Source of the DNA: Octopus sinensis
Taxonomy: Eukaryota
Reading direction: 5' to 3'
Assembly: GCF_006345805.1 (NCBI RefSeq)
Contig: NC_043002.1
Coordinates: forward strand, 8,556,001-8,620,000
DNA: 64,000 nucleotides
In this document: in pieces, positions 3,425 through 51,810 of the stretch
Numbering within the stretch: the stretch's first letter is position 1
Layout of the letters: each line of letters opens with the position of its first letter
Position numbers and translations under genes: made by a program
The notes under the pieces: generated by a model
What the model was told of the DNA's origin: nothing
Databases searched by the model: none
The model's input: the letters and a program-made list of their open reading frames with translations, nothing else

Positions 3425-3651
3425 ACCAGAGTAAGCACATAAATGTAAAACAAGGTGGAAAAATAGTACTCAAATACCAGAGGTAGAGTAATATGCTTTA
3501 TTTAAAAGCAGCAGAAATGTAGCAAAAGCTGTTACTCAGAGTTTCATGTTCCCATTTGTCGAACAGTTTTAACAAAATTGTCCAACGAACGGGAACATGA
3601 AACTCTGAGTAACATCTTTTGTTATATTTCTGCTGCTTTTAAATAAAGCAT
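3425..3651. mobile_element. Fold-back element in (TA)n with hammerhead-like folds in both arms (Penelope/retrozyme-like)
   Basis: Inverted arms 3493-3570 and 3574-3651; a related fragment lies at 58735-58822; tandem copy at about 5347-5574. Confidence 0.7.
3529..3566 (-). ncRNA. Minimal type-I hammerhead-like fold, variant core UCGACAA
   Basis: Minus strand reads CUGU-UCGACAA-AUG GGAA CAU-GAAA-CUCUGAG-UA^ACAG; stems I, II and III all pair. Copy at 5452-5489. Confidence 0.65.
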
Positions 3652-3766
3652 GCATATATATATATAAAATTATTTGAGGGAATATTAATCCTAACTTATA
3701 GGGAAAAATTCAATTTAGAAATACTAAATCAAATTTCACACAATATAATATATATATATATATAAA

Positions 3767-3991
3767 AATTAGAAAAAACCCACCTTTTATCAATTCAAAA
3801 TGAACATTTAAATTACACCATCTAGAAAATTACATATAATAGAATGTTTTTATTATTTTTTATTATTTTTTTTGCAATTTACTAATCATCAGTATATTAT
3901 TGTTATTTTAATATTTCTATTATATGTAATTTTCTAGATGGTGTAATTTAATTGTTCATTTTGAATTGATAAAAGGTGTTTTTTTCTAATT
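3767..3991. repeat. Fold-back element in (TA)n with a decayed hammerhead-like spacer
   Basis: Inverted arms about 3767-3845 and 3915-3991; CTGATGA on the minus strand at 3886-3892; tandem copy at about 5692-5919. Confidence 0.65.
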
Positions 3992-4228
3992 ATATATATA
4001 TATATTATATATTATATATATATGCATATATAAAATCAAAATAACTAACAGGATATCAAAAAGCGATGCTTGTAAGCTATGACACCAGTAAGCTTTGTGC
4101 ATTTCTTGGGAATGTCTATTCTTAGCTACAAAAACACAACATGGATTTCTTTCATCTTTGTTGCTCTGTGAAAGTATTTTACTAAAATGTATTGATGCGT
4201 CCAACTGATTAAATTCTATTTATATTTG

Positions 4229-4314
4229 TGCAGCTGATGACAGCCTTGCATTTAAATTGACGTAATGATTGCATTGTCCAATTAAATGGAGCCACTTGAA
4301 ACGGTCGTACTGCA
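4229..4314 (+). ncRNA. Type-I hammerhead-like fold with canonical core
   Basis: UGCAG-CUGAUGA-long imperfect stem II-GAAA-CGGUCG-UA^CUGCA; stem I is 5 bp and stem III ACGGUCGU is near self-complementary. Confidence 0.75.
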
Positions 4315-5241
4315 TCACCTCTGGATATCCTGTTTCTTACTTTGATTTTATTCACCTTACTTCGAGGTGTGTGGACAATACCGGATTAACTTCGTGCTTC
4401 AACTTAAGTACCTAATTCAACTGAATCTCAGTTATTTCTTATATCCATATATATATATATTTTTTTTTTACTACCCATAAGGGGCCAAACACAGAGGGGA
4501 CAAACAAGGACAGACAAACAGATTAAGTTGATTACATCGACCCCAGTGCATAACTGGTACTTAATTTATTGACCCTGAAAGGATGAAAGGCAAAGTCTAC
4601 CTCAGCGGAATTTGAACTCAGAACGTAACAGCAGATAAAATACAGCTACGCATTTCGCCCGGCATGCTAACATTTCTGCCAGCTCACCGCCGTGTATATA
4701 TATCCATATATATATAATTATTACACATGTATATATATGTATATATATATATACGGCAAAAAGAAAATGCAGGGAATATAGAAATGACATATATCAACTG
4801 TTAGACAGTCTTTGCATATGTATATATTCTTACAAATGTTTTAGAATAAATAAATAGCCAGCCTCTCCTGGCACCTGTGCCGGTGGCATGTAAAAGGCAC
4901 CCACTACACTCATGGAGTGGTTAGTGTTAGGAAGGGCATCCAGCTGTAGAAACACTGCCAGATCAGAATGTCAGATCATGTGACAGTACCAATGCTGGAG
5001 CACCATCTTTGGTCGAACAAATTGACCACAGGATTCAGTCTTTGTAAGCTTAGTACTTATTCTATCGGTCTCTTTTGCTAAACCACTAAGTTATGGGAAT
5101 GTGAACACAGCAACATCATTTGTCAAACAATGGTGAGGGTACAAACACAGAGACACACACACAAATATACACATATATACGACAGTCTTCTTTCAGTTTC
5201 TGTGTACAAAATACACTCTCAAGGCTTTGGTTGGCCAGTGG

Positions 5242-5284
<43 letters not shown>

Positions 5285-6151
5285 ATATCTATATCCATAT
5301 ACATATATATATCCATACACACACACACACACATACACATATATACACCAGAGTAAGCACATAAATGTAAAACAAGGTGGAAAAAATAGTACTCAAATAC
5401 CAGAGGTAGAGTAATATGCTTTATTTAAAAGCAGCAGAAATGTAGCAAAAGCTGTTACTCAGAGTTTCATGTTCCCATTTGTCGAACAGTTTTAACAAAA
5501 TTGTCCAACGAACGGGAACATGAAACTCTGAGTAACATCTTTTGTTATATTTCTGCTGCTTTTAAATAAAGCATGCATATATATATATATAAAATTATTT
5601 GAGGGAATATTAATCCTAACTTATAGGGAAAAATTCAATTTAGAAATACTAAATCAAATTTCACACAATATAATATATATATATATATAAAAATTAGAAA
5701 AAACCCACCTTTTATCAATTCAAAATGAACATTTAAATTACACCATCTAGAAAATTACATATAATAGAATGTTTTTATTATTTTTTATTATTTTTTTTGC
5801 AATTTACTTAATCATCAGTATATTATTGTTATTTTAATATTTCTATTATATGTAATTTTCTAGATGGTGTAATTTAATTGTTCATTTTGAATTGATAAAA
5901 GGTGTTTTTTTTCTAATTTATATATATATATATATATATATATATGCATATATAAAATCAAAATAACTAACAGGATATCAAAAAGCGATGCTTGTAAGCT
6001 ATGACACCAGTAAGCTTTGTGCATTTCTTGGGAATGTCTATTCTTAGCTACAAAAGCAACAACATGGATTTCTTTCATCTTTGTTGCTCTGTGAAAGTAT
6101 TTTACTAAAATGTATTGATGCGTCCAACTGATTAAATTCTATTTATATTTG

Positions 6152-6237
6152 TGCAGCTGATGACAGCCTTGCATTTAAATTGACGTAATGATTGCATTGT
6201 CCAATTAAATGGAGCCACTTGAAACGGTCGTACTGCA
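6152..6237 (+). ncRNA. Hammerhead-like fold, tandem copy of 4229-4314
   Basis: Same sequence in the second duplication unit. Confidence 0.75.
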
Positions 6238-6780
6238 TCACCTCTGGATATCCTGTTTCTTACTTTGATTTTATTCACCTTACTTCGAGGTGTGTGGACA
6301 ATACCGGATTAACTTCGTGCTTCAACTTAAGTACCTAATTCAACTGAATCTCAGTTATTTCTTATATCCATATATATATATATTTTTTTTTTTACTACCC
6401 ATAAGGGGCCAAACACAGAGGGGACAAACAAGGACAGACAAACAGATTAAGTTGATTACATCGACCCCAGTGCATAACTGGTACTTAATTTATTGACCCT
6501 GAAAGGATGAAAGGCAAAGTCTACCTCAGCGGAATTTGAACTCAGAACGTAACAGCAGATAAAATACAGCTACGCATTTCGCCCGGCATGCTAACATTTC
6601 TGCCAGCTCACCGCCGTGTATATATATCCATATATATAATTATTACACATGTATATATATGTATATATATATATATACGGCAAAAAGAAAATGCAGGGAA
6701 TATAGAAATGACATATATCAACTGTTAGACAGTCTTTGCATATGTATATATTCTTACAAATGTTTTAGAATAAATAAATA

Positions 6781-6990
6781 GCCAGCCTCTCCTGGCACCT
6801 GTGCCGGTGGCATGTAAAAGGCACCCACTACACTCATGGAGTGGTTAGTGTTAGGAAGGGCATCCAGCTGTAGAAACACTGCCAGATCAGAATGGAGCCT
6901 GGTGCAGCCTCCTGGCTTAGCAGACCCCGGTCGAACCGTCCAACCCATGCTAGCATGGAAAGCGGATGTTAAACGATGATGATGATGATG
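6781..6990 (+). mobile_element. Retroposon family C
   Basis: GGAAGGGCATCCAGCTGTAG...CCATGCTAGCATGG...(GAT)n. Confidence 0.85.
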
Positions 6991-7351
6991 AAATAGACAT
7001 AACCTGGAAACATGTCATTAGGAAACAAACTTTTTAACCACACAACAACGACTGCACCTATGTACATGTGAAAACATTCTTACATATATTTTTTCAATCC
7101 ATAAAATATATACTTAAAATAAATTATATAAAGCTTTCTTGTTTTTAAAGCAACACAGTCTTACTTACATATACCATTTCCAATGCATATTTAAAGAGAA
7201 GATGGGGGGAAAGAAAGGGCAAAGTACAAACTCTTGCAGGTAAGGCTGCTCTATCAACAACCACTCCAACAAGAAGAACAACACTCCGAGATGCTAGCAC
7301 AGATATCATGACAATGACATTGATAATAACAGCAACCATAATGACAGTGTG

Positions 7352-7382
<31 letters not shown>

Positions 7383-8134
7383 TTGTGTGTATGTGTGTAT
7401 GTGTGTGTGTGTTTGTGTGTATGTGTGTATGTGTGTGTGTGTTTGTGTGTTTGTTGTGTGTGTGTGTGTGTGTGTGTGTGATGCAGGTAGGTGTCTGTCA
7501 TTAGGAATTTTATCTTATAAAAGGATTTTGATCAAGAATTTAATTTAAGCATGAATTTTAATATAGGCAGAGGCTGCTATCAATGAAGCGTCAACCGATA
7601 TGTTTTGATCAGACATATTCTACATTGAAAATCTGAACAGCTTTCAACTTCCTAGCTTTTCATTTGTTCACTGGCAAAGAATCAAACAAACACTAGAAGT
7701 ATTGACCATTAAAATAAAATCACAGTTCAAAACAAGCCTCTTACCATTCTTGGCTGTTCGTAGAATAATCAAATTATTAATCCGACCAGATGATCTGATA
7801 CTGGATATATTGCATTTTACTTTTAGGGAAAATATAAAATTATTAGATTTATAATAATCAGGATGTTTACAGGTATTCATAAAATAACATTTTACATTTT
7901 TGGGTTTTTTTCTTTTATGAAATTCAACAAAGTTAAAGAATTTTTGTTTTCTTTGAACTTAAACTTATTAAGGGCTCTTTATTTTTAAGAGATTTAACAA
8001 GTTTGCTTCCCCATAAATTAGTGACTTGAAGTTCAATAGCGTTTGTTCTATGACTGAAAATATTCTATAATGAAACACTGAGGTTTACTAACTACAGGAT
8101 CTGGAGTTCAAGTATTACTATATACACTGACAGA

Positions 8135-8366
8135 GGGCGGCAAGCTGGCAGAATCGTTAGCGTGCCAGGTGAAATGCGTAGCCATATTTCGTCTGTCGTT
8201 ATGTTCTGAGTTCAAATTTCGCCGAAGTTGATTTTGCCTTTCATCCTTTCGGGGTCGATAAATTAAGTACCAGTTTCACACTGGGGTCAATGTAATCGAC
8301 TTAATCCCTTTGTCTGTCCTTGTTTGTCACCTCTACGTTTAGCCCCTTGTGGGTAGTAAAGAAATA
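8135..8366 (+). mobile_element. SINE family B, full length
   Basis: Matches family B from head to GGGTAGTAAAGAAATA. Confidence 0.9.
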
Positions 8367-8770
8367 TATATACACTAACAGACAAAAAGAATTTTGCTTG
8401 ATTAACAACCAGTTCTATTTGTAATGGCAAGGTATTCAACTGCAAAATCAAATATCCAACATTGTGTAAAATACCTAAATTCCCAAAACCCAAAACCCAC
8501 CATAACTGTGTTGGTTAACCAGAAAGCTTTATATAATTTTTTAAAAACATATATTTTATGGATTGAAAAATTATATTCTTACTCAAAGCAGATTTATCTA
8601 TTAGTTAAAAGTGAAAACCAACATACTGCTTCTCAGAAGAGAAAAACATCCAGTATTCTTTGCAAACTATTTCCTTCCCAATCCCATTTTCTTTCCTTTA
8701 TAAAAATATATAGATATTAATAATCCAGAGAGAAATCTATTGCTTTAGAATAAGCATGACATTGTATAGT

Positions 8771-9018
8771 GGAGGCGCGTGGCTTAGTGGTTAGGGTGTT
8801 GAACTCATGATCATAAGGTTGTGGTTTCGATTCCTGGATCAGGCAATGCGTTGTGTTCTTGAGCAAAACACATCATTTCACATTGCTCCAGTCCACTCAG
8901 CTGGCAAAAATGAGCAATCCTATGACGGACTGGCGTCTCATCCAGGCAGGGAATTTCTATGCCACTGAAACCGGGAAACCGACCCTTATGAGCCTGGCAT
9001 GGCTTGAGAAGGAACATT
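8771..9018 (+). mobile_element. tRNA-derived SINE family D
   Basis: GGCGCGTGGCTTAGTGGTTAGG A-box, GGTTTCGATTCC B-box, CORE-like GTTCTTGAGCAA; relatives at 34483-34600 (+) and 46900-47115 (-). Confidence 0.8.
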
Positions 9019-9145
9019 TTATATATATATATGACATTGTATCCCATACATAATTATTACAATTGGAGGACATAGAATTATGGTTCAATATGATACCTGG
9101 TATTTAATTCTATCAGCAAGGAAATAAAATCTTGATTGACACAGC

Positions 9146-9374
9146 TTAACCCTTTCATTACCATATTTATTTTGAGATGTTCTGTGTTTCTTTCAGTTAT
9201 TTAAAATATAACAAAGAATTTAGTAAAATAACTTAGTTATCATTAAGCTAGTATTAGGAACATAAATTGTGACTAAGGTTTGGTGGAAGATTTTAATTCA
9301 AAACTTATGAAAACAAGACATTTGTACTACAGAGCCAGAGGCGGTTTCAGCTGGGTTGGTAACGAAAGAGTTAA
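9146..9374. mobile_element. piggyBac-type MITE, about 230 bp
   Basis: TTAA-CCCTTTCATTAC...GTAACGAAAGAG-TTAA; TTAA target duplication with short TIRs. Confidence 0.85.
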
Positions 9375-9636
9375 CAGGCAGTTGGATTACTAACCAAAGA
9401 CTTAGTGGATCATTTTGTCTTTAACACTATTGTGCTATGTACATGTACCCTATTCAATAAAGTGTAATGTATCATATGTATGTTACCTATGTAAGGTGTG
9501 AAAAGACTGTATAGTCGACAAATGTTTCATTAGTTTAGAATACCGAAGTGTAAATCCATTTGAGACTTGGACAATAATAGAGGGGCTCACACTGAAGTTC
9601 CGTTGGAATTTCAGCAATTACTGCATTAAAGGGGCC

Positions 9637-9865
9637 CTAACCCTTTCATTACTGTATTTATTTTGAGATGCTCTGTGTTTCTTTCAATTATTTTAAATAT
9701 AACAAAGAATTTAGAAAAATAACTTAGTTATCATTAAGCTGGTGTTAGGAACATAAATTGTGACAAAGGTTTGGTGGAAGATTTTAACTCAAAACTTAAG
9801 TAAACAAGACATTTGTACTACAGAGCCAGAGGCGGTTTCGGCCGGGTTGGTAATGAAAGGGTTAA
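9637..9865. mobile_element. piggyBac-type MITE
   Basis: Same family, CCCTTTCATTAC/GTAATGAAAGGG TIRs. Confidence 0.85.
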
Positions 9866-10506
9866 TATTATTCATGAACAAGAGGTTGTGAAGACAGTAA
9901 AATGATAACAAATGTACTTTTTAACAACCTGGAATTCATTCAGTAATATATATTCTCAAGTAATATTTTCTTAAATTTTAGGTAAATGATGTTACTTGCT
10001 TATAAGAAAGAAAAATTAAAAATTACTCCCACATATTCCAAAACTTTCCAGACAGTTATTTTGTTAATAATATTAAGATTTGTTAGATTTTCATTTCGTG
10101 GGAGAGATATTCAAGAGATTTTATCATCAATGTGAATAATCATTTTAGTATTAAAACGATTTTTTAGAGAAAAAACCCAAAAAACAAACAAACATGAATA
10201 AGTAGAATAATCATTATAAAACATTACTTTCCCAAAATATTAATCAGTAATCAGTGACAATTCAGAAAACATTAATAAATTATTCATTGTAACAGATGCT
10301 ACAGAATCGTTACTTGACGAAGTGAAAGAAATACATTCTAGCAGCGTTCATTGCTTTGTTCTATTTCGATCTAATTTGGAAAATAACAAATTCCATTGGC
10401 TACTCTGATTGATGAGCTTGATGCTTATTAAAATTCTAATTACTGTTGTAGCGTTTGTTACCATGGAAACTGTATTGAAACAAAAGACAATTATCGTATA
10501 TTTATG

Positions 10507-11056
10507 ACAATAGCAGCGTGAAAGGTGTTTATAAGCCATTTAAGAAACACACAAAAACCGTTAGATTCACTTCAACATTTAAATTTAATTTGTCAAAATA
10601 TTTTCGTTGCTTTGAGACCATGACCTGTTATAAAGTTTTGTCAGTGAACAGATAACAGTTTCAAAGCGATGAAAATATTTTGACAAATTAAATTTAAATG
10701 TTGAAGTGAATCTAACGGTTTTTGTGTGTTTCTTAAATGGCTTATAAACACCTTCCACGCTGCAATTGTTTTCGTTCCAGCACACGATCTCAGATCAAGT
10801 CACTTGCTATGCGAGTACATCTCCGTATATTTATAAACATTGCTAATATCACTAACCACTTCAAGTTGGTGTAGAATCGTTCTAACGAATAACATAAATT
10901 AAAATACGGAAACTATTACATATTACTAGGACAGCCGTGAGGTGCAATGTTGAACAAGATATAAAGCTCTTTGTAAACCAAAGTATTTCCTTGCTCAAGC
11001 AGCTACAAGGAACCTAAGCCCGACATGGGTAGCTTGTAATTGAGTATGAAAAACAC
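10507..11056 (+). mobile_element. Penelope-like non-coding element with about 120-bp inverted arms and a hammerhead-like fold
   Basis: Arms 10507-10629 and 10647-10769; 10635-11056 is homologous to 21395-21818. Confidence 0.7.
10637..10687 (+). ncRNA. Minimal hammerhead-like fold, G3-C8 core variant (stem II decayed)
   Basis: UUUGUCA-GUGAACA-...-GAAA-AUAU-UU^UGACAAA; stem I is 7 bp and stem III AAUAUU is palindromic. Confidence 0.55.
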
Positions 11057-11123
11057 ATTCAGGACTGAAAAAGCACATGCAGTCATCAAACTGAATAAAA
11101 TTCTTTGTACATATTAAAATTGC

Positions 11124-11463
11124 ATCTTGGGCAAGTGTCTTCTGCTATAGCCCCGGGCCGACCAATGCCTTGTGAGTGGATTTGGTAGACGGAAACTGAA
11201 AGAAGCCTGTCGTATATATGTATATATATATATATGTGTGTATGTATGTGTTTGTGTGTCTATGTTTGTCCCCCTAGCATTGCTTGACAACCGATGCTTG
11301 TGTGTTTATGTCCCCGTCACTTAGCGGTTCGGCAAAAGAGACCGATAGAATAAGTACTGGGCTTACAAAGAATAAGTCCCGGGGTCGATTTGCTCGACTA
11401 AAAGGCGGTGCTCCAGCATGGCCGCAGTCAAATGACTGAAACAAGTAAAAGAGTAAAAGAGTA
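11124..11463 (+). mobile_element. SINE family A, 5'-truncated
   Basis: Matches family A from CATCTTGGGCAAG onward. Confidence 0.88.
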
Positions 11464-12851
11464 ATGAAAACACATTTTTCTCTGTGGATAGTGTGCTTTT
11501 GTGTGTGTGTGTGTGTGTGTGTGTGCCATTCTTGTGTGTGTTCCTTGTGATTTTTCTGGTTCAACGGATCTTCTATCCGAATATTGTTGTCTTCTTATTG
11601 CTTCAAGTTTGTTGGGGTTGATTCTGTCCTCATTATTGAACACCCATGTTGTTTTCAGTGGGAGACCTATGCATGTGTGTACATGTGGTGTGTATAAGTA
11701 TGTATGGATATAGGTAAACATATGTGTGTGTATGTATATATATGTGTGTGTGTATGTATATGTGTGTGTATGTATATATGTGTGTATGTATATATGTGTG
11801 TGTGTGTGTATGTATATGCGTGTGTATGTGTGTGTGTGTGTGTGTGTGTTTGAAACCGAAATTCGAAAGTGCGTTGTTGAAATTTGATTATATGTAAACT
11901 ACTTGTGAGATATTATCAAAGAATTGACAGTAAGAAAATTCCTGAGAAGAGAAAGAAATACAACAATATAAAGTATTACCATATTTTTGTAATCCATCCG
12001 AGTTGTGAATATCAACTCTTCTTAACAATTCCATTGAAGTATACAAATAAACACAGACGTGAGCAGATCAAAGATGCTTTTTACTAAAGGACTAGAATAT
12101 CAAACTGTCAGGAATTTCTGTGTGTGGGACTAAACCCGCACCTTATCCTGTAGCAAAGGAAAAGAGGAGTACTTGAAATGCCAGAAGGAAATGAAATATA
12201 TGACAAAATCACTGGCTTATGGGAAAGGAAAAGGAAAATAAACCAATTGTTAGTATTGTTTTGCTACTAAACTTAGATTCTGGATTCTCTTTCAACAAAC
12301 AGAAATCAGCTTATAATGTTCTAAGTTACTCATCATTATACATAATCTACCGTTGTAGTGTCTTCAGATTTTCAGTTATGTTTCAATAAACTAGTGTCTT
12401 GCATAACATAAAAATGTAGAAGTGGGAAAGAAACAGGAAGATATGAAACATTTTGTAGCTGCTTTGGTTTTGTGACTTTTTACATTTTAGACAAGACACA
12501 TCATTTACATTTCAAAAGCATTACACTAAAGAAGGACTAAGATATAAAAAAAAAATATCCTTCTATTTATATGATCAGTTTGAAGAGAAGGTCAATGACT
12601 TTATTATAATATAAACTCTTCTAGAGTGAGGCATATGGTAAATGAGTTCGTTAGTGGCATTAACATTCAATTTGAACTGCTACTGGATAGGGGTTTATGT
12701 GGAAATGTGTAAAAGAAAGTAGTTTCTGCAGAATGTAGTTCCAGGATGAAGGAGTAGGTTTAATACTGGGTCTGTAATTTATGTTTCCCTTTTGACAAAG
12801 CATCAGAAAATTAAATCAAAATAAAATCTTTAGTTAAAATAATGATTCTCT

Positions 12852-18870: not shown

Positions 18871-18883
18871 GGTATGTCAATAA

Positions 18884-19299
18884 TTATTTCTTTACTACCC
18901 ACAAGGGGCTAAACACAGAGAGGACAAACAAGGACAGACAAACGGATTAAGTCGATTACCTTGACCCCAGTGCGTAACTGGTACTTATTTAATCGACCCC
19001 GAAAGGATGAAAGGCAAAGTCAACCTCGGCGGAATTTGAACTCAGAACGTAAAGACAGACCAAATACCTATTTCTTTACTACCCACAAGGGGCTAAACAC
19101 AGAGGGGACAAACAAGGACAGACAAACGGATTAAGTCAATTACATTGACCTCAGTGCGTAACTGGTACTTAATTTATCGACCCTGAAAGGATGAAAGGCA
19201 AAGTCGACCTTGGCGGAATTTGAACTCAGAACATAACGGCAGACGAAATACCACTAAGCATTTCGCCCGGCGTGCTAACGATTCTGCCAGCTCGCCGCC
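18884..19299 (-). mobile_element. SINE family B head-to-tail dimer with TSD
   Basis: Two B units; TTAGGTATGTCAA on both flanks. Confidence 0.88.
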
Positions 19300-19439
19300 T
19301 TTTTAGGTATGTCAAAACTTCTGAAATTACCTGTTTCTATCTGAGATTTTTGTGCAACATGTATTAGGTAATATGAAATTCAATAATAACTGACTTAATA
19401 AACAATATCACAAATTTCTTGAAACTTCTTAAATAAATA

Positions 19440-21222: not shown

Positions 21223-21365
21223 TAACATATTAATTAAAATATATGAGAAACCATTGGTAACTTTCTAACTGCCTATAACCACTGACTACATAGTATGTGT
21301 GTGTGGGTGCAGTGTATAATTGTGTGTATTTTATAATTCATTAAATGACAAAGAGAAACATTAAT

Positions 21366-21843
21366 AATTGCAGCGTGGAAGAGATGCAGCACGAAGTTTT
21401 GTCCGTGAACAGATCACGGTCTCAAAGCGCCGAAAATATTTTGACAAATTAAATTTAAATGTTGAAGTGAATCTAACGGTTTTTGTGTGTTTCTTAAATG
21501 GCTTATAAACACCTTCCACGCTGCAATTGTTTTTGTTCCAGCACACGATCTCAGATCAAGTCACTTGCTATGCAAGTACATCTCCGTATATTTATAAACA
21601 TTGCTAATATCACTAACCACTTCAAGTTGGTGTAGAATCTTTCTAAAGAATAACATAAATTAAAATACGGAAACTATTACATATTACTAGGACAGCCGTG
21701 AGGTGCAATGTTGAACAAGATATAAATCTCTTTGTAAACCAAAGAATCTTCCATGCTCAAGCTGCTCGAAGGAACCTAAGCCTGACATGGGTAGCTTGTA
21801 ATTGAGTATGAAAAACACCTCGCTATACAAGTACATCTCCATA
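21366..21843 (+). mobile_element. Second copy of the Penelope-like G3-C8 hammerhead element
   Basis: Fold at 21398-21448 (GUGAACA...CGAAA-AUAU-UU^UGACAAA); 16-bp inverted arm at 21366-21381; GCTATRCAAGTACATCTCC directly repeated at about 21567 and 21822. Confidence 0.65.
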
Positions 21844-22813
21844 AGGAACATTAATCTTATTCAATTATTCCTTTAAAATGCAGTTTGACTTAAATCATAT
21901 ACAGAACATTAAAACTGAAACTTTTTCCTCCTGGTATTTTTATGGGGACTGTAGGAAAGATAGGAACAATAAAACTTACTAGTATATAAAGATCAAATTA
22001 TTACAATTCACCAACTTGGACAAATTCTTTAAGTTTCTTTCATAAAAAAAAAATCTTCAAAATTAACTTTCCCAAGTTATTAAGATGGACAAATTGTTGC
22101 TGACACACATATTACTGACTTCCTCAAACCCAGATTTTGCCTGGTTTCAACGATACTTTTTCAGCATAGTTAGGATGTAATTTAAGCAACTGAAGGCAGT
22201 TCCAAACTTCTTTTTGTTAAGAATAATGTCAGTTTCAGGAAGAGCAAAGGTATATAGTTGATTGAATTAACTGATAAATCATTACTGGTAATTATTATCC
22301 TGACCCTGGAAAGATGGAAAGCTATGATAAAAAAAAAAAAAATCATACAAATTGCAGCTGATTACGAATTTAGAATATATAAGGACAAATCTAAATTTAG
22401 CAAAGCATTTAGTTTATCATTTTTGACAACTCAGTACTAGAGTCGAAAGTAATCTTTTTTGCAAAAAACTAAATAGTTAGGAAAGGAATATTTTAGGAAA
22501 TGAAGTGACTGACTTTATTAAGATATGTAGCAACATTCTGCATTCCCAAATTGCAAAATAATTTTCACATGTCATGTGAAATATTTTAAGAAAAAGAAAA
22601 AGTAAGGGTTTTCTGAATATTGGTTCTAAATTGAATTTAAACTTTGCCTTCTAACCCTGTGGTGTTCTCTGCTGCTGTATTAGCATTTAAGAAATAGCAC
22701 CAACTCCCAACCCCCTACATACCAAAACGCTGTCATCTAGCTGGCCTAGAAAAGTACAGTACACTTGCATTCTAATCTTATTCCTCAGATCAAAATAATT
22801 TTCTGTGTATACA

Positions 22814-25130: not shown

Positions 25131-25184
25131 CTAGCATCACTTTGGTGGCATATACTGTTCTCTCACTCAATAATAATAGAATAA

Positions 25185-37427: not shown

Positions 37428-38718
37428 CGAGGGGCGTTCAATAAGTAATGCCCCTGACCCACTTCCCATAGCAGTAGAGCAACGAAACTTGGCACAGTTA
37501 TTAGTCTTTTTCTACGTAGGAACCACCCAGAGTTACGCATTTCTCCCATCGTTTGATGCAGCTCTGAAGACCGTTTTTGTAGAAGACCCCAGCTTGGTCC
37601 TCCAACCACAACGTGACTTCAGAAATCAAGGCTGCATCATCTGGGAAACGCTTTCCTTTCAAAAACAACTTCATGGCTGGGAAGAGGTGAAAATCAGAGG
37701 GTGCAGGTCAGGAGAGTAGGGAGAATGGGGGATGAGCTCATAGCCGCACGCCTGTGCTTCTGATCTGGCGACACACGAGTTGTGGATCGGAGCGTTGTCC
37801 TGCAGGAGGAGGATGCCTTTGCTGATCTTGCCCCGCCTCTTGATTTTGATAGCTTCTCTTAATTTCCTCAAAAGTGAAGCATAATAGACTCCTGTAATTG
37901 TGGCACCCTTTGCCAAGAAATCTGTCATCACTACTCCGTCCTGGTCCCAGAAGACTGTGAGCATGACCTTGCCAGCGGAGGGCTGCACCCTTGCCTTCTT
38001 TGGAGGAGGTGAGTCACGGTGCTTCCACTGCATTGACTGGGCTTTGGTCTCTGGATCATAGTGATGGACCCAGGTTTCATCCTGTGTAATCAGACTTTTG
38101 AAAAATTTTGACTCATCTTCTTGGCACATCTTCAAATTCATCCTCGCGCAATCGACGCGTTCTTGCTTCTGGAAAGGTGTGAGCAGCCTGGGAATCCATC
38201 TGGCAGACACCTTTTGCATATGCAAATGGTCATGAATGATAGTTTCCACAGACCCGGTACTAATCTTGACCTCATGGGCTATTTGGCGAATAGTTATGCG
38301 TCAATCTTCCAAAATGGCAGCCTCAACTTGACGGACAGATGCCTCATCAATGACAGAAGGGAGCGACCAGATCTGGGAGCTGTTTCCACAAAGTTCCGAC
38401 CATGTTTGAATTCACGATGCCAGCGTTTTACAAGGTCATATGATGGGGCATCATCACCATAAGTTACTTTTATTTCATCAAAAGTCTCCCATGGTGTGCG
38501 TCCTTTCAAATACAAAAACCGCATCACTGCTCGACACTCAACAGGCTCCGTTTCACACTTGACTCAGTTCAAACACCTGTAAATCAGAAACCACAATTAG
38601 TTCAGAGCTGTAATTTGCCACTTAATCTATAGAGATATAAATAATTGCACATGCAAAATTTCAGCTAGATCAAACAACTGCAAGTGGGTCAGAGGCATTA
38701 CTTATTGAACGCCCCTCG
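37428..38718 (-). mobile_element. Full-length mariner transposon, about 1.29 kb
   Basis: TA TSD on both sides; TIR CGAGGGGCGTTCAATAAGTAATGCC(C/T)CTGACCC at both ends. Confidence 0.96.
37501..38551 (-). pseudogene. Mariner DD34D transposase pseudogene
   Basis: ARWIPRLL, ITQDETWVHHY, KVMLTVFWD, LLQDNA and PYSPDL motifs; split over ORFs 38294-38527 and 37671-38249 by frameshifts; probable start codon mutated to ACG. Confidence 0.93.
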
Positions 38719-41492: not shown

Positions 41493-41535
<43 letters not shown>

Positions 41536-42165: not shown

Positions 42166-42197
<32 letters not shown>

Positions 42198-43313: not shown

Positions 43314-43542
43314 TTAACCCTTTAGTGTTTAAACTGGCCAAATCCGGCCCAATATATTCTAGATGTTTTATATTCAAACTGGTGATATCTAGCCTCTCAC
43401 ACCTAATCTACAATGCCATTCTAAAAATAAACAATCCCATCATTGAAACCTCAAAGCTATAAGATAATCCAGGATTAATTCAAAACAATTTGAGTGAAAA
43501 AGTATTACATTTAACAGAATAATCTGCACACTAAAGGGTTAA
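43314..43542. mobile_element. piggyBac-type MITE, second family
   Basis: TTAA-CCCTTTAGTGT...CACTAAAGGG-TTAA; same length as the main family with a diverged interior. Confidence 0.75.
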
Positions 43543-43705
43543 GGAACCCAATGAGATTAAAAGAAAAGCTAAGTCAACAGTATTTGAACTCAGATCAGTA
43601 AAACAATGAACTAAGTAGACACCAATAAAGAATGAATCTGAGCACATTACTGACTGAACAATCTTTTTGCTAACATATGAGGTTAATGGCAAAAGAAAGT
43701 GGTGT

Positions 43706-44030
43706 TGTTGTTGTATTTAGGAATGGTCATTTTGCCAGTTTAACCAATAAAAACATATGTACTATATATTTGGTGTTACTTTGCTTCAGCTTTATTTATT
43801 TTTTACATTTATCTTAATATTGTTCGGTAAAGGACCACTGATGAGGTCACAGAAGTGTGACGAAAGAACTCTGGCCGAAATAAGATTAAGATTAATGTAA
43901 AAAATAAATAAAGCTGAAGCAAATTAACACCAAATATATAGTACATATGTTTTTATTGGTTAAACTGGCAAAATGACCATTCCTAAATACAACAACATCT
44001 GTTTCAACACACGATTTCACATCAAGAATC
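43706..44030 (+). mobile_element. Fold-back element with a hammerhead in the loop
   Basis: About 120-bp inverted arms at 43706-43827 and 43875-43997. Confidence 0.8.
43832..43876 (+). ncRNA. Minimal type-I hammerhead-like fold
   Basis: GGACCA-CUGAUGA-G-GUCACA GAAG UGUGAC-GAAA-GAAC-UC^UGGCC. Confidence 0.72.
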
Positions 44031-44309
44031 TTGCAAAACAAATATATAAACGTGACAAAGTGATGTTGATTACAAATCTATTTTATAGAAAGATATTAAT
44101 CCCATCAAATCACAGGGATTGGCAAAATCATACAGTATCTTACATCACTGGTAAATGACATAGATGAGGGAGCAATGTGTTCCTGTACAAGGCATTATTT
44201 TATCACAAGAAGATTTAAATCCAGGATAGTAACGCTTATGAATGATATGGTGCCCAGCTGCTTGCAGTAGTGAATTATATCAGCCTATGGTACTTATTTA
44301 TATAATTTC

Positions 44310-44710
44310 TTTTATTTCTTTTACTTGTTTGTCATTTGACTGCGGCCATGCTGGAGCACCACCTTTAGTCGAGCAAATCAACCCCGGGACTTATTCTTTG
44401 TAAGCCCAGTATTTATTCTATCGGTCTCTTATTTCCGAACCGCTAAGTGACGGGGACGTAAACACACCAGCATCGGTTGTCAAGCAATGCTAGGGGAACA
44501 AACACACACACACACAAACACACACATACATATATATACATATATACGACAGGCTTCTTTCAGTTTCCATCTACCAAATCCACTCACAAGGCATTGGTCG
44601 GCCTGGGGCTATAGCAGAAGACACTTGCCCAAGATGCCACGCAGTAGGACTGAACCCGGAACCATGTGGTTGGTTAGCAAGCTACTTACCACACAGCCAC
44701 TCCTGTGCCT
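44310..44710 (-). mobile_element. SINE family A
   Basis: Full-length match to family A. Confidence 0.9.
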
Positions 44711-44879
44711 ATAATGAAAAAAAAATTGTCTTACAGGAGGAAAGGCAATATCCATGACCTTTTGGAATGCTCCTGAGGTGGGAAAAAGAAAGGTGTTATG
44801 ATCAGGTCAGCACTAGGTCTGGAAGCACCCAGTGTCCAGGTGGGTGGTGTTGAACTAGGCAACAAAATAAGCCAACAGA

Positions 44880-45283
44880 GAATTATTTTGATGGCAATCC
44901 CTCAAGGTCGAGGATGATGGTCTTCGCGCAAATTTACTGGTGAGTCCGTAGGTGACCGATAAGACCAATTCTTGCTTGAAAAGATCGGTCGCAGTACGGA
45001 CATCTTGTGCCAGAAGGGAGAGTCGCACATGGTTGTTGTTGGCGCTCCTTCCGTCGTCGTCTTTTCTCCTCCAGCTCTGCAGACCTTTTCGACTCGAAAG
45101 TCGCCGTTCCCTCATGGATGGTGGTTTTCCAGAGTGGTCTGTTTTTGCCGTTTCCTCCCAGTTAGTGAAGTCGATGTCACACTTTTTGAGGTTCGTTTTC
45201 AGGGAGTCCTTGTAGCGTTTCTTCTGGCCTCCTTTTGTACGCTTGCTGTCTTTGAATTGGGAGTAGAAGATCTGTTTGAGAAT
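44880..45283 (-). mobile_element. RTE (BovB-like) LINE 3' end
   Basis: KQIFYSQF..GGQKKRYKDSLK..CDID, then a C-terminal C2H2-like CPYCDRSFQARIGLIGHLRTH. Confidence 0.8.
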
Positions 45284-45634
45284 TAAATGTCTGCATCAAA
45301 GACAAAGAATGTCAGTACTCAAGAGACTGGGTACAAATTTGGTAACCCTTCAGCTATTTAACCAGCTTATCAAGCACTCACCCAGCTGTGACTAAACAAA
45401 GGATTAATAATTCATAAGTGACTAGATATCACATGACTAGATATCAACAGCTTCCTCGTTATTATGAAAGAAATTTTTAAAAAGTAAAAATAAATCCATG
45501 CAGCTTATCTCACTTATTACAGCAGGACTGATTATAAAGAGTGTTTCATGATTGAACATAAAGAAGCAATTAAAAAGTAATTGACCCACCACCACACACA
45601 TGCACACACAGAAACACACACACTAATAATACAA

Positions 45635-46060
45635 AGTGGCTGTGTGGTAAGTAGCTTGCTTACCAACCACATGGTTCCGGGTTCAGTCCCACTGCATGGC
45701 ACCTTGGGCAAGTGTCTTCTACTATAGCCTCGGGCCGACCAAAGCCTTGTGAGTGGATTTGGTAGACGGAAACTGAAAGAAGCCCGTCGTATATATGTAT
45801 ATATATATATATATGTATGTATGTGTGTGTGTGTGTACTTGTGTGTCTGTGTTTGTTCCCCTAGCATTGCTTGACAACTGATGCTGGTGTGTTTATGTCC
45901 CCGTCACCTAGCGGTTCGGCAAAAAGAGACCGATAGAATAAGTACTGGGCTTACAAAGAATAAGTCCCGGGGTCGAGTTGCTCGATTAAAGGTGGTGCTC
46001 CAGCATGGCCACAGTCAAATGACTGAAACAAGTAAAAGAGTAAAAGAGAGTAAAAGAGTA
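45635..46060 (+). mobile_element. SINE family A
   Basis: Matches family A. Confidence 0.9.
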
Positions 46061-47917
46061 TGGGTAGAAATATACAAACCAACATACGGACATACATAGA
46101 AGCATATAAAATCTGCAGTCAAGCTGTTATATGATCAGTGTTGATATAGCTTAAATTCCATTATCTCAGTATAAAAACTGGAGTTTAATTGATAAAACAC
46201 TACTAAACCAATTCTTTGTATAACGAGTAGATTATGCAGACAGTTATCTTCACTTAATTGTTAGTCTGAAGAGAAAAATGTATAATTTAGATTGTAAAAA
46301 CCGTCCAGCACAGCAACAAGTGGAAGAGAGCCAGGACAGTTAATGACAATCAGAGGAATTTGAGATGATTATTGGTACTAGAGCATTAACGACAATAAAT
46401 TTCAGCCTCTGATGAAGAAACACTGTCAAAAATATTTTCCTCCTGATTGCAGTAAAATAACTAAACTTCCTTGGTCTGCTAGAGATAACAGCTGAATTTC
46501 CTTAATTTAGACTTTATGACCTTAATAAAGAAAGTCTACACTGAACAATGTAATTCATACATATTCAAAAAGACAGAATATTCTTTTATTCTTTTACTTG
46601 TTTCAGTCATTTGACTGTGGCCATGCTAGAGCACCACCTTTCATCAAACAAATCGACCCCAGGACTTATTCTTTGTAAGCCTACTACTTATTCTATCGGT
46701 CACTTTTTGAATATTAATTAAGGGGATTTAGAAAAATTTTTTTGAGAATATTCCTAGCAAATAAGGTATTAATTAGCACACATATCAAAAACCTTTAAAA
46801 TATAATGGAAAGGAGGTAACCAAGATAAAAAGATATATATATATGTTATAATTTCTAAATCTCTCTCGTGTGACCAGACTATCACATGTTGTTACCCATC
46901 ACTGGTTATGCACTTTGCATTGTTTTAGCCTTCAAATGATGCCACCCCACTGGCTGGGAGAACAGGGCAACTTTCCACACCAGTTGAAAAGAAAATTGGA
47001 GCAATGTGAAATGAAGTGTTTTGTTCAAGAACACAACATGGTGCCTGGTCCAGGAATCGAAACCACAATCTAGTGATTGTAAGTGCAACAACCTAACCAC
47101 TAGGTCATGCATCTTCACACACACACATACATGTGTGTGTGGGAGAGAGAAACAGGGATAGAGAGGGAGAGAGAGAGAGAGAGTGAGCATGTTTATTTAC
47201 ATGTGTATTAGTCCAACCCATGCTAGCATGGAAAGTGGACGTTAAACGATGATGATGATGTCTATAAGAAGTGCTTGCCTAAGGTGCCATATAAGGGAAT
47301 TGAAACTGAAATCACCTAGTTGCAAAGCTGCCAGTCCACTGCATTTTAGCAGTCTATGGGTAAGCAGTAGCTGACAGAATAAAGAATTCATTCACTTGAC
47401 ATTTCTAACTGATCATTCCATCTTTGCTGCTGAACCTGTTCAGTACCTCAGCAGGCTGTGTAACCCCAGGTCAGCCCTGATCAAATTGACCTATGATGGA
47501 AGTATGCCATCTGTGATCCCTCCACCTTTTTGCTAAACAGAATTACATTGTCTAGCATATTCTTTATTCAAGATGGTAGGGTGTGATTTTATGGGTATTT
47601 GGCTGTTATACCTAGTTTGAATGTAAAGTTGGATAACTATGTAGAAATTTAGGTTTGAAACTGTTTAGCTCTAAGTCAGGTCTCATCAAACAGACCTGTG
47701 ATTAAAAGCATTCCAGGCATGACCTTCCAATCTTGTTTCCAGTCAATGTGTTCAAGCCCACATTATCCTTTATATTATATATATTTGAATTTTTTGAGAT
47801 AATAAGGTGTGACTTGGACACTGAATTTTGTTATTATTTCTAGCATGTCAAGCCATCGGTTAGAATTTCCCTTCATGATATGTTAAGTTTGTTAATATGT
47901 AACAAAGGAATGTTTTC

Positions 47918-48326
47918 GGATCTTTTTGGTTTGAACAGCAGTTTTTAACATAATTTCTAGGTAACTAAAAAATTTTAAACTTCGTATACTGGTAGAATGT
48001 GTTTATAAAACATCTTTTTCTCTTGGCTTTATTGAGACAATTCTATAGTTTGTAAGATATTTGTTGTTTGTTTTTTTTCTTCAATTTCTGCAATTTCAAC
48101 CAATCACTGACGTCTATTGAGGTAAAAAACATTCTGTGCCATATGAATATGTCCCTTGTTTAAGAAACAGATTGGGTTTATTTACATTTCTGAAGAAAAA
48201 AAGATACCCTTCCCCCTAATCCTAAAACAGATTGAAATGCAATAGATCGATACTAGGGTCATAATTATGGGTGACAATTTCATATGACATCACTAGAAAA
48301 AACTGCTGTTCAAACCGAAAAGATCC
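47918..48326. mobile_element. Complete MITE with 29-bp TIRs starting GGATCTTTT
   Basis: GGATCTTTTTGGTTTGAACAGCAGTTTTT...AAAAACTGCTGTTCAAACCGAAAAGATCC; imperfect 7-8 bp TSD ATGTTT(T)C. Confidence 0.85.
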
Positions 48327-48544
48327 ATGTTTCTAATATGTGGAATATCAGGAAATAATTAACAGCACCACAAATGAAGAAATGAATAGTATTTTCCCCA
48401 ATCTGAAGATATTCTAAGCAACAGTGCTAACAGAACATACCTCACCATATTTAGCAATTATATCCAGATTACAAACAACCCGTAATATGTTACAAGATAT
48501 GTGCTCAATTTTGTCTCCTAGGTAAAACTAGTTCCATTGTTCTT

Positions 48545-48582
<38 letters not shown>

Positions 48583-49125
48583 ATTCATACCATTAATGCT
48601 GGTTGGAAACATAAACACGGCAATTCCTATATATCTTTCTCTTTAAAGAATTTCTTAACCTTCAAGCATACCTGAAAAATGCAATAGGAAGCCACTCCAG
48701 CCAACCCAACCCCATACAGTATAACAGTGTCAAAAGCTACATCCTCAAAGGAAATATACACGCTAGTTTTATATTGCGCACATGTGTGTGCGTCTGTGTG
48801 TGCCTGTGTGTGTGTGTGTGTGTGCTTGTTGTAAAAATTGTTGGATAGGATGCACAGCTAGTGTCAAGTTTATGATTGGCAACATTTCAAGGATTAAAAA
48901 AAAAAAACAGAAAGACGGTAGTAACCTTATATTCTTAAAGAACATGAGATAAAGTATAAAAAAAAAAAAAAAGAAAGCCTTACATGGAGTAAAACTAGAT
49001 TTGTCTCAAAATCCAGGTCAATAAGTTATATTGAGTAGCTTACAGTGTTTGGTATACTATGAACTAGTATAACTGAAGCTAATATCAATTGGAATGGTAT
49101 CTTTGAATCTAAAAATAATATAACA

Positions 49126-49690
49126 GGTGTAGGAGTGGCTGTGTGGTAAGTAGCTTGCTTACCGACCACGTGGTTCCGGGTTCAGTCCCACTGCATGGCA
49201 CCTTGGGCAAGTGTCTTCTACTACAGCTTCGGGCCGACCAAAGCCTTGTGAGTGGATTTGGTAGACGGAAACTGGAAGTAGCCCGTTGCATATATGTGTA
49301 TATATATATATATATATGCATGTGTGTGTGTGTATGTTTGTGTGTCTGTGTTTGTTCCCCCCGACATCACTTGACAACCAATGTTGGTGTGTTGACGTCC
49401 CTGCAACTTAGCGGTTCGGCAAAAGAGACCGATAGAATAAGTACTTGACAACCAATGTTGGTGGGTTGACGTCCTCGCAACTTAGCGGTTCGGCAAAAGA
49501 GACCGATAGAATAAGTACTTAACAACCAATGTTGGTGTGTTGACATCCCCGCAACTTAGCGGTTCGACAAAAGAGACCGATAGCATAAGTACTAGGCATA
49601 CAAAGAATAAGTCCTGGTGTCGATTTGCTCAACTAAAGGTGGTGCTGCAGCATGGCCACAGTCAAATGACTGAAACAACTAAAAGAGTAT
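49126..49690 (+). mobile_element. SINE family A with internal triplication
   Basis: About 74-bp unit TTGACAACCAATG...AATAAGTAC present three times (49371-49592). Confidence 0.9.
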
Positions 49691-50408
49691 AACAGTAAAA
49701 CAAACTGAAACAGGAAGATTTTCTTTTCATATATTTCGGTCTTAACAAATTATGTGTGCAGTAAGTGATATTTTATTTGTTTACCTATGTATCATTAGTT
49801 TTTAAAAAATTGTTCATCTCTTTTTTTTCAGCCAATCATATTCCATCTATAAACCCATTTTGCAAGTTATTTACTCACAGATGATATTTGACCAAAGAAA
49901 AGAGAAAACTTCTTCAGAGAAACAAATGATATAAAATAGATTGATTGCCTCAATCTAAAACATCAACTGTTTTCAATGAGCAGCTTTCAACTTTTAATGC
50001 CAGGAAGCGTTTATGGCAAGACTGGTTTCATATTGTATTTTATCTTTTATTTATTTGTCTGTTTCAGTTTCTTAATCAATCAATAACTTAAAATGGGGGT
50101 AAGAAGGAAAGATTAAATAAAAAAAAAACTAAAATATAGCAATAAAAATTTCTACCTTAGAAGACTTATATGAGATTTTTTCTTCTTTAAGTTTAAAAAA
50201 AATCAAAGCTACACACAAAAAAAACAGTAGCAACAATGTTATCCACTACAAAAATCTATTGTTAGCAAACTGGAGCCGAAAACCATAATATTTTGTTAGT
50301 TAACACAGGTAATAAACATATACTAAAAAACAAGAAATGTGAATTGTTTGCATAACTACTTTTGTGTGTGTGTTTGTATGTTGTCTTTCTTTATAAACTG
50401 TAAAATCA

Positions 50409-50615
50409 TCTCTATATATATATATAAACGGCAAAATGTCTGTGTGTGTGTGTGTGTGTGTATCCTTTATACAAATCCACAATATTTCAGTTAGAGGGCT
50501 TGCACTTTCTATGGTCATTTAAAACCGTCCAAGGGTGGTCATGCACATCTTTACATTTCCCCAGTCACCCCACAAATCCATTAAAAATCAATAGAAGTGA
50601 CTTTTTTGTGAATAA
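50409..50615 (+). mobile_element. Possible non-autonomous Helitron/Helentron 5' part
   Basis: TC-TATATATATAAA start followed by a (TG)n tract; no 3' hairpin or CTAG end seen. Confidence 0.3.
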
Positions 50616-50639
50616 ATCTTTCTTGCAAATATCTTCTGG

Positions 50640-50995
50640 TTTTGCTTCCCAACCATGTGCTTTTGGGCTCAGTCCCTCTGTATGGCACCTTGGGCAAGTG
50701 TCTTCTACTACAGTCCAAGGCTAACCAAAGTCTTGTGAGTGGATTTGGTAGATGGACACTGAAAGAAGTCCATGTGTGTGTGTGTGTGTGTGTGTGTCTG
50801 CATATGTGCGTGTGTGTGCATATGTGGGTACATGTGTGTGAGTTTGTTCTCATCCACCACTTAACAACCAGCTGTTGCTTTGTTTACATCCCCCAGGTGT
50901 TCAAATACTGATGTTCATTTATTTGACTAAACCCTTCAAAGCAGTGCTCCAGCATGGGTGCAGTTTGAAGACTAAAAACAGAAAAAGATAAAAAG
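50640..50995 (+). mobile_element. SINE family A, diverged
   Basis: GGCACCTTGGGCAAGTGTCTTCTAC...GGATTTGGTAGA core. Confidence 0.75.
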
Positions 50996-51266
50996 ACATA
51001 ATTGAAAATAAACAAAGGCATGAACCAATGAGGGAAACACCACAGAATCACTTGATCTGCTAAAAACAGCATTTGAATACTCTTTCAGATCATGTCCTAC
51101 TATCTTAGAAACGTAAGACAGAATGGATACGGTAATCTGAGATTAGTGATATGAGAGCTAATTCATGACTCAAGGGTGTAGGCTTTTGGATATGTGATAG
51201 ACTTTGAAAAAATTATTAAATATTGTTTATAAAAAAAACTTATCAGTAAACATTTGCCTAAAAGTA

Positions 51267-51312
<46 letters not shown>

Positions 51313-51390
51313 TAAGGGTAGAAATTGATATTTATCAATTAAGACCAGTGGTCTAGCATATTAAAAAAGAATCCGAAGATTAAAATATTT

Positions 51391-51802
51391 ATATATACCA
51401 ATTAAGGACTGAACACGAAAAGTGGACAGTCAACATGCTAGATATAGACGTCAAATCGCCATTCACCACAAAAGATTATGTTCTCAGATCAAACTCAACA
51501 CAAAACCATAGCAATAAACAAGTGAAAAATATACGAAATAAAATAATTACCCATGTACTAAATTAGTTTCAGCTGTTATTTTCCGCAAGGAAAACTGCAG
51601 CCATCATCAACATGGTCCGTTATAAATGTAATTTGCTGGACTAGATGCATGGGTAATTATTTTATTTCGTATATTTTTCACTTGTTTATTGCTATGGTTT
51701 TGTGTTGAGTTTGATCTGAGAACATAATCTTTTGTGGTGAATGGCGATTTGACGTCTATATCTAGCATGTTGACTGTCCACTTTTCGTGTTCAGTCCTTA
51801 AT

Positions 51803-51810
<8 letters not shown>
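51391..51810 (-). mobile_element. Fold-back element in (TA)n with near-perfect arms of about 160 bp and a hammerhead in the spacer
   Basis: Arms at 51391-51555 and 51648-51810. Confidence 0.88.
51551..51615 (-). ncRNA. Type-I hammerhead-like fold
   Basis: Minus strand reads CCAUG-UUGAUGA-U GGCUG..UUUUCC UUGC GGAAAA..CAGCU-GAAA-CUAAUUUAG-UA^CAUGG. Confidence 0.75.

Follow-up and report, generated by a model that had tools for sequence, protein, structure and literature searches.

Head-to-head 3′-end insertions from hammerhead-carrying families in the Octopus sinensis genome and their probable link to Penelope-like elements

A 64,000-nt stretch of the Octopus sinensis genome (the window), which is AT-rich and contains many microsatellites and short interspersed repeats, carries six kinds of short fold-back element: E1 (3425-3651), E2 (3767-3991), E3 (4029-4351), E4 (two copies, starting at 10507 and 21366), E5 (43706-44030), and E6 (51391-51810). 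An initial annotation, made from the sequence alone, had described them as dissimilar, non-coding inverted elements, each with a hammerhead-ribozyme fold, and had taken them for a population of non-autonomous retroelements. We found that each element consists of two pieces of the 3′ end of one family, placed head to head. Very probably, these pieces belong to six unrelated families and were most likely inserted by proteins of Penelope-like elements (PLEs), the non-coding E6 likely borrowing such proteins.

In the genome searched (2.72 Gb in 13,516 contigs), all six elements are repeats, with 839-3624 first-look candidates per family (40 scored per search). Exact 33-34-nt patterns matched 787 times for E1, 1095 for E4, 882 for E5, and 892 for E6, and reversed controls gave no match. 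The counts of ends and junctions given below come from pattern-sampled loci (91 for E5, 58 for E6, and 30 each for E1 and E4). L-numbers denote loci taken from the same genome, and positions marked + or - are counted from the predicted hammerhead cut. No real sequence similarity was found between the families except in the tails of E4 and E5 (34 nt, 79%), and no protein-coding sequence was found inside the six elements, both in agreement with the initial annotation. The long inverted arms that it reported are present in most elements, but the arm is only 40 bp in E3 and about 18 bp in the E4 copy at 21366. Its boundaries had to be revised: the tails of E2 (to 3668), E3 (past 4351, to at least 4417), E5 (44053), and E6 (51290) had been omitted, and 10828-11056 is flanking sequence outside the E4 element.

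Hammerhead folds and insertion ends

We searched for minimal type-I hammerheads with a relaxed descriptor. It tolerated a bulge following A9 and a short stem III, accepted either U or C at position 4, and took every Watson-Crick combination at 3:8. All seven hits in the window fell inside E1, E3, E4, E5, E6, or their duplicates, and 40 shuffles of the window gave 1.9 hits on average (maximum 5). The descriptor was tuned after the family sequences were known, so the location of the hits weighs more than their number. The family cores are CCGACGA in E1, CTGATGA in E3, E5, and E6, and GTGAACA in E4. The three-stem core C/UUGANGA..GAAA..NUH is canonical in E3, E5, E6, and the E2 family, and variant in E1 (U4C) and E4 (a G3:C8 pair). 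The hammerhead regions of the E5 and E6 window copies have fold z-scores of about -2; the E1 and E4 window copies are decayed, and their fold is clear at the family level only.

Longer copies of the E2 family have a textbook minimal hammerhead with a 12-bp stem II, a CACGTG stem III, and GUC, located on the strand opposite a minus-strand CTGATGA. It is present at four places among all loci examined, upstream of the start of the window copy, and its fold has a z-score of -4.05 against shuffles. About 22 nt separate the predicted cut of the family from the start of the direct arm in the window copy, which lies downstream of it, and this copy therefore lacks the hammerhead. The minus-strand CTGATGA within it was rejected as a hammerhead; it has neither GAAA nor a stem III and differs between copies. 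Accordingly, the claim of a hammerhead in every element is correct for the window copies of E1, E3, E4, E5, and E6, some of them decayed, and incorrect for that of E2.

Stem covariation, also suggested as a check, was counted for E6 only. Among 16 variants hand-picked from 34 distinct ones, four pairs show two-sided change, and variant cells are paired in 98.4% of cases versus 27-49% when the partners are slid. Because the sequences are related, these two-sided changes represent few independent events. When applied to 1.55 Mb of fetched DNA, a non-random sample of the genome, the descriptor gave 49 further distinct hits (three shuffles gave 1, 1, and 2). Thirteen of them are variants of E1 or E6, and about three dozen lie outside the six families; stem III is palindromic in nearly all. 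Hammerhead families in this genome are thus far more numerous than the six treated here. Hammerheads with A:U or U:A at 3:8 were also seen, downstream of GIY-YIG open reading frames (ORFs) or in flanks (L199, at about 2070-2110, L188, L201, L203, L104, and L055); with E4, such families would mean that all four Watson-Crick 3:8 pairs occur in one genome.

The central junction between the two arms varies from copy to copy in all families sampled, and the palindrome is therefore not inherited as a unit. The outer ends, on the other hand, fall at two fixed 3′ end points per family, 50-95 nt apart and downstream of the type-I hammerhead fold: about +42 and +110 in E1, +88 and +149 in E4, +127 and +180 in E5, and +171 and about +256-266 in E6. 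One short end and one tail end were found in 69 of 71 classifiable paired insertions. This comprises 31/31 in E5 (36 junctions in 91 loci), 19/21 in E6 (33 junctions in 58 loci; nine were cut by the locus edge and three were of other types), 10/10 in E1 (15 junctions in 30 loci), and 9/9 in E4 (10 junctions in 30 loci, two of which share one amplified junction). Solo, one-armed copies of E5 are common (37 and 20 in two samples) and use either end (39 short, 17 tail, and one other).

The annotated (TA)n context of several elements was borne out, and targets are mostly (TA)n, with TATA or ATAT in 120 of 150 outer 12-nt flanks versus about 12% in the background. Window copies without TA-rich flanks have direct repeats of 9, 11, and 12 bp, as read by eye. 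Target duplications are of variable length (9-12 bp) or vanish in (TA)n. One E4 palindrome recurs with a fixed junction and approximately 700 bp of shared flank (L278, L279, L280, L296-L300, and L304), indicating that a larger repeat carried it along during amplification.

Coding parents and the tandem retrozyme

A genome search for GIY-YIG endonuclease domains gave 147 matches when 150 of 5029 candidates were scored. The genome contains intact frames of 762-883 aa with reverse transcriptase (RT) and GIY-YIG domains, in which several of these matches lie, and some elements bearing these two domains end in a hammerhead of their own followed by (TA)n. PLEs are usually described with one ORF. In L213 (674-2110), L221, and L214 (5818-4979), a second, overlapping frame of at most 479 aa was observed upstream of the RT-GIY-YIG frame; the PLEs with this extra frame look intact and carry a CX4CxxC linker.

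The 3′ end of E5 follows or adjoins one type of GIY-YIG endonuclease in 8 of the 91 pattern-sampled loci, as well as in L237 and L246; the RT of this parent was not seen in the E5 loci. Copies of E3 have more than 2 kb of upstream sequence in common; this sequence runs up to an endonuclease preceded by an Asn-rich stretch and an RT motif. Both the RT motif and the endonuclease of the E3 parent are found in L446 and L503 (GIY-YIG E-value 3e-4), and about 1.6 kb separate the end of the ORF from the downstream E3 hammerhead in L503. E3 and E5 are 3′ ends of GIY-YIG-encoding PLEs. The endonuclease of the E3 parent, read by eye, has conserved E and N residues surrounded by a CxCX5C linker, CxxC, and CxH and lacks CCHH, which fits the description of the Hydra clade; this assignment was set by motif description. 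An earlier label, Nematis, was dropped in favor of this description. An Asn-rich insert lies between RT and endonuclease in the Hydra-type E3 parent in L431, L446, and L503.

For the remaining coding candidates, a GIY-YIG remnant was found about 1.1 kb upstream of E4 in 1 of 30 loci (L295), and a decayed, possibly chimeric RT/endonuclease sequence upstream of E1 in 1 of 30 loci (L251). E1 and E4 are probably 3′ ends of GIY-YIG-encoding PLEs as well. In L193, L222, and L223, GIY-YIG ORFs are followed by a repeat to which the 3′ end of E2 is 77-80% similar; the 3′ end of these PLEs resembles E2 from about +7 on, and no hammerhead was found upstream of it. No short fixed tandem unit was found for E1-E5 in the loci examined, and their arms run into long untranslated regions (UTRs).

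E6 is of a different kind. It forms tandem arrays of 505-507-bp units with one hammerhead each, and arrays reach at least 16 units. No ATG-initiated ORF of 50 aa or more was found in the E6 array of L224 (1650-5320). The arrays often contain an inverted block, with a short end on one side, a tail on the other, and (TA)n outside. E6 is a non-coding tandem retrozyme and the only one of the six families that is clearly non-autonomous. A parent PLE was sought in E6 loci and their extended flanks, and none was found beyond chance neighbors. The E6 monomer is covered by contigs of four sequencing runs presumed to derive from RNA; these contigs cannot show strand, ends, or circles, and were not used as evidence. 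In summary of the initial annotation, its link to PLEs and retrozymes is supported by the PLE ORFs upstream of E3 and E5 and by the E6 tandems. The adjacent RT/GIY-YIG ORFs that it had proposed to look for are present for E3 and E5 and in one locus each for E4 and E1; for E2 and E6, none was found in the copies examined. Its population of non-autonomous elements is for the most part not supported, a non-coding tandem retrozyme being shown for E6 only.

How the insertions may have arisen

The features described above suggest the following route. The GIY-YIG domain would cut or nick AT-rich DNA such as (TA)n, and the two end points would serve as internal start sites of reverse transcription on the RNA, as for an anole PLE in vitro. 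Two cDNAs, or one cDNA and a fold-back copy, might then stop early, and their 3′ ends could be joined through microhomology. The palindrome would form anew at each landing and would therefore be a by-product rather than the mobile unit itself. The hammerhead probably processes the precursor RNA, acting as a dimer via its palindromic stem III, and in E6 it may convert multimers to monomers or circles.

The inverted arms, small size, and TA targets recall miniature inverted-repeat transposable elements (MITEs) mobilized by a cut-and-paste DDE transposase, with incidental hammerhead folds, and the window does contain a mariner-type remnant (37671-38300, minus strand; a 209-aa frame, Transposase_1, PF01359, E-value 3e-25). 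However, the ends are asymmetric in nearly all classifiable insertions, the center varies between copies, solo one-armed E5 copies are common, target duplications range from 9 to 12 bp, and arms run on into RT/GIY-YIG ORFs. Symmetric terminal inverted repeats, a fixed interior, and a target duplication of fixed length were not observed. The elements are not MITEs, because junctions vary, target duplications vary or vanish, and the two outer ends differ. This explanation is largely refuted, and we consider it scarcely credible; a DNA-transposon signature of terminal repeats and target duplications tied to a DDE transposase, which the initial annotation had named as evidence against itself, did not emerge. 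Its warning that such elements would be mistaken for MITEs was well placed. It is also very improbable that the palindromes formed after insertion, by fold-back at the DNA level or by inverted duplication at AT-rich repeats. Near-symmetric junctions, in which the arms are truncated within 12 nt of each other, make up 13 of 33 in E6 (shuffled mean 3.1, 0 of 5000), which would agree with such a process; E5 has no excess (3/36, with 3.6 expected), the E1 and E4 samples being biased and uninformative here. In addition, the outer ends lie at two fixed, family-specific points, and target duplications enclose the whole two-armed unit. The excess in E6 and its absence in E5 suggest that fold-back priming contributes in some cases.

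All six could also be dedicated non-autonomous families, retrozymes or mini-PLEs, which spread from short RNAs of their own. This is true for E6; the long E2 copy looks non-coding, and the majority of copies in E1 and E4 have very little length, with 20 of 30 E1 arms starting 34-57 nt upstream of the cut. On the other hand, 10 of 30 loci have longer E1 arms, reaching as far as 458 nt upstream, the 3′ ends of E3 and E5 continue into PLE ORFs, and fixed short tandem monomers of E1, E3, E4, and E5 were absent from the loci examined. We regard this explanation as unlikely for the six together.

Several observations weigh against insertion by PLE proteins as the common origin, or against the hammerhead folds themselves. 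The window copies of E1 and E4 (z about 0) and of E3 (z 0.36) fold no better than shuffles, and none of the 109 matches of an Rfam scan at E<=10 was to a hammerhead family, so that Rfam recognizes none in the window. The pair-count shuffle for E6 ignores relatedness, and the number of two-sided pairs has support only at the level of 157 of 500 shuffles. The parent links of E1 and E4 each come from 1 of 30 loci, and the E1 locus with the ORF diverges from other long copies between the ORF and the 3′ end. For E2, only a 77-80% relative of the 3′ end follows GIY-YIG ORFs, and a 2.8-kb E2 copy with its own hammerhead has no credible match upstream to host PLE proteins. No PLE with E6-like ends was found. 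Finally, the intact, amplified E4 palindrome indicates that some palindromes do move as passengers.

Whether arm ends mark the ribozyme cleavage site was considered separately. Among the window copies, the inverted arms of E3 and E6 stop at or within 2 nt of the predicted cut. In the first E5 sample, 8 of 54 junction ends lie at 0..+8, with no end in the adjacent 9-nt intervals; this range was chosen after seeing that sample, and a replicate gave 0 of 18. Solo E5 ends at 0..+8 number 1/37 in the first sample and 4/20 in the replicate. Equally sharp clusters of E5 ends lie near -100 and -82, and microhomology is available at the predicted cut from stem I and from a GGCC palindrome. Among 13 less-biased E2 loci, nine start at 0..+22, none at -1 to -86, and four pass through the ribozyme; the cut region of E2 is of low complexity. 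In E6, none of 33 pattern-sampled junctions has an arm end at 0..+3, and the ends of incidental E1 and E4 copies accumulate not at the cut but upstream of the ribozyme. An accumulation of ends at the cut is suggestive for the families E2 and E5 and absent in the retrozyme E6. Since other hot spots are of similar height, microhomology suffices to explain ends at the cut. A tentative and rather doubtful extension is that these stumps record PLE integration in vivo: a protein dimer would prime two strands at two fixed RNA sites, one each, and E6 would take the same route. The 5′ limit of a stump would then be the 5′ end of the RNA, set by hammerhead cleavage in E2 and E5, which have canonical cores, lying just upstream of the ribozyme in E1 (U4C) and E4 (G3:C8), whose variant cores are weak, and missing in E6, whose template would be multimeric or circular. 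If so, the ends of E6 would be a direct genomic footprint of retrozyme mobilization by PLEs.

The elements represent no new kind: apart from one non-LTR retrozyme, they are inverted and truncated PLE insertions, and both kinds are known. Inverted truncated copies, one-sided tails, and a bias for (TA)n have been published for PLEs (PMC8557442, PMC3846280). As in insertions of endonuclease-containing PLEs, we observed head-to-head 5′-truncated copies with a tail at one end and a hammerhead near the 3′ end, variable target duplications, and captured flank between terminal repeats (same sources). In contrast, tails are about 50-95 bp here versus 30-40 bp as published (PMC8557442), octopus copies are cut down to the last 100-400 bp, and the rule of one end of each type is stricter than 'often only at one end' (PMC8557442). 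Anole Poseidon PAc cleaves both strands of AT-rich DNA in vitro and initiates internally at two tail-flanking sites; its hammerhead is protein-assisted and not needed for insertion (PMC11167929). The two fixed internal end points flanking the tail, the AT-rich targets, and the upstream hammerhead are shared with this element. However, the strands shared start sites in vitro, whereas paired insertions here almost always use one site per arm; moreover, hammerheads here lie in long 3′ UTRs, about 0.45-1.6 kb past the ORF end, whereas that of the anole element overlies the start codon. Fold-back priming has been proposed for PLEs (PMC3846280).

Many minimal hammerhead families per genome and opposite-strand pairs have been published (PMC4209133). 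Like those of other PLEs, the octopus hammerheads are of type I with an extra base between 9 and 10.1 and a palindromic stem III, and they include dissimilar families in one genome, U3-A8 variants, and opposite-strand pairs 100-700 bp apart (Cervera and de la Pena 2014, PMC4209133). They differ in the natural G3:C8 swap of E4, with UUU at the cut, and in U4C as the family state of E1. In the literature consulted, G3/C8 occurs only as a partial rescue made by engineering (PMC11167929), and U4C only in a variant of a viroid (PMC3088659). The E3 parent shares CxCX5C, CxxC, CxH, the lack of CCHH, a hammerhead, and (TA)n targets with Hydra clade PLEs (PMC8557442). Unlike them, it has the Asn-rich insert before the linker, which recalls the N-rich inserts of rotifer PLEs (PMC3846280), and a 3′ UTR of about 1.6 kb, and it exceeds the described <3 kb.

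Retrozymes are likely PLE derivatives according to the literature (PMC7229834, bioRxiv 10.64898/2026.07.22.740005, and PMC8969392 among the sources). E6 resembles metazoan non-LTR retrozymes in its ORF-free 505-507-bp tandem with one type-I hammerhead per unit (PMC7229834; bioRxiv 10.64898/2026.07.22.740005), its range from dimers to long arrays, and its low GC content. It differs in that its arrays are often head to head, with short and tail ends of the PLE type in (TA)n. The word 'inverted' is absent from the main text of PMC7229834, and inverted arrays are not described in the available text of bioRxiv 10.64898/2026.07.22.740005. In a search that covered few subscription papers, neither these families nor a natural G3:C8 family turned up in any paper, and none dealt with retrozyme arrays that have inverted ends of the PLE type. 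The supplements of PMC8557442 or PMC4209133, or Repbase/Dfam, may already list these families or core variants.

Most notable are that the end asymmetry is nearly strict, that a retrozyme has PLE-type ends, and that two core variants occur in high copy. They bear on how PLEs make inverted ends and tails, on hammerhead cutting in vivo, and on the enzyme that moves animal retrozymes. The one-short-end, one-tail rule and the ends of E6 raise questions that can be tested with existing in vitro systems, and the natural variants G3:C8 and U4C are ready substrates for ribozyme assays. For annotation, such palindromes resemble MITEs yet belong to PLEs.

Window copies and neighboring features

Table 1. 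Coordinates of the element copies, arms, and hammerhead folds in the window
Feature	Position	Strand	Description
E1	3425-3651		Head-to-head insertion, two arms
E1 left arm		sense on -	From about 46 nt upstream of predicted cut to +109; bears tail
E1 right arm		sense on +	End at +40
E1 decayed hammerheads	cores 3562, 3582	-, +	One per arm
E1 family hammerhead			Core CCGACGA (U4C), stem III CTCTGAG, GUA
E2	3668-3991	direct arm sense +	Head to head; inverted arm and tail 3668-3844, direct arm 3857-3991
E3	4030-4417	+	40-bp inverted arm (4030-4069) joined to 5′-truncated 3′ end of putative Hydra-type PLE
E3 hammerhead	core 4234-4240		CTGATGA, long stem II, GAAA, CGGTCG, GUA; predicted cut after 4309
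E1, E2, E3 second copies	5347-6340		Within 98.8% identical 1.9-kb tandem duplication (2587-4970 / 4499-6894)
E4 copy 1	10507-10827	direct arm sense +	Inverted arm 10507-10629; direct arm and tail 10633-10827
E4 copy 1 hammerhead	core 10644-10650		GTGAACA (G3:C8 swap), GAAA, ATAT, UUU; predicted cut after 10680
E4 copy 2	21364-21845	+	Direct E4 at 21381-21588 preceded by an inverted arm of about 18 bp; another tail fragment at the far end; target duplication of 9 bp
E5	43703-44053	direct arm sense +	Inverted arm 43703-43824; direct arm and tail 43829-44053; 3′ end of GIY-YIG PLE
E5 hammerhead	core 43838-43844		CTGATGA, bulged G, 6-bp stem II, GAAA, GAAC, CUC; predicted cut after 43871
E6	51290-51817		Partial monomer of 506-bp tandem retrozyme; (TA)n on both sides
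E6 sense arm	51649 to 51290	-	With tail
E6 hammerhead	core 51610-51604		TTGATGA (family CTGATGA), GAAA, CTAATTTAG, GUA; predicted cut after 51556
E1 3′-end/tail fragment	58743-58818	-	Without hammerhead
E3 tail fragment	58859-58913	+	Without hammerhead

The inverted arm of E3 stops 2 nt from the predicted cut, and that of E6 (51648-51817) reaches it exactly. E5 is flanked by a 12-bp direct repeat with one mismatch. The first E4 copy has an 11-bp direct repeat at both ends, which we read as a target duplication. The second copy, which extends 13 nt further 5′ than the first, contains 230 bp (21589-21818) matching the flank of copy 1 (10828-11056) at 95.7% identity, about 10 kb apart. This flank sits between two tail sequences, all within the 9-bp target duplication, and its capture looks like local transduction by a template switch.

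Apart from the duplication that holds the second copies of E1, E2, and E3, there is another near-identical tandem duplication in the window (58972-60409 / 60386-61826, 99.4%); either recent duplication or an assembly artefact could account for the two. Short interspersed repeats with microsatellite cores, forming two or three abundant families, were observed across the window, for example at 439-837, 4460-4759, 18885-19303, and 45635-46057.

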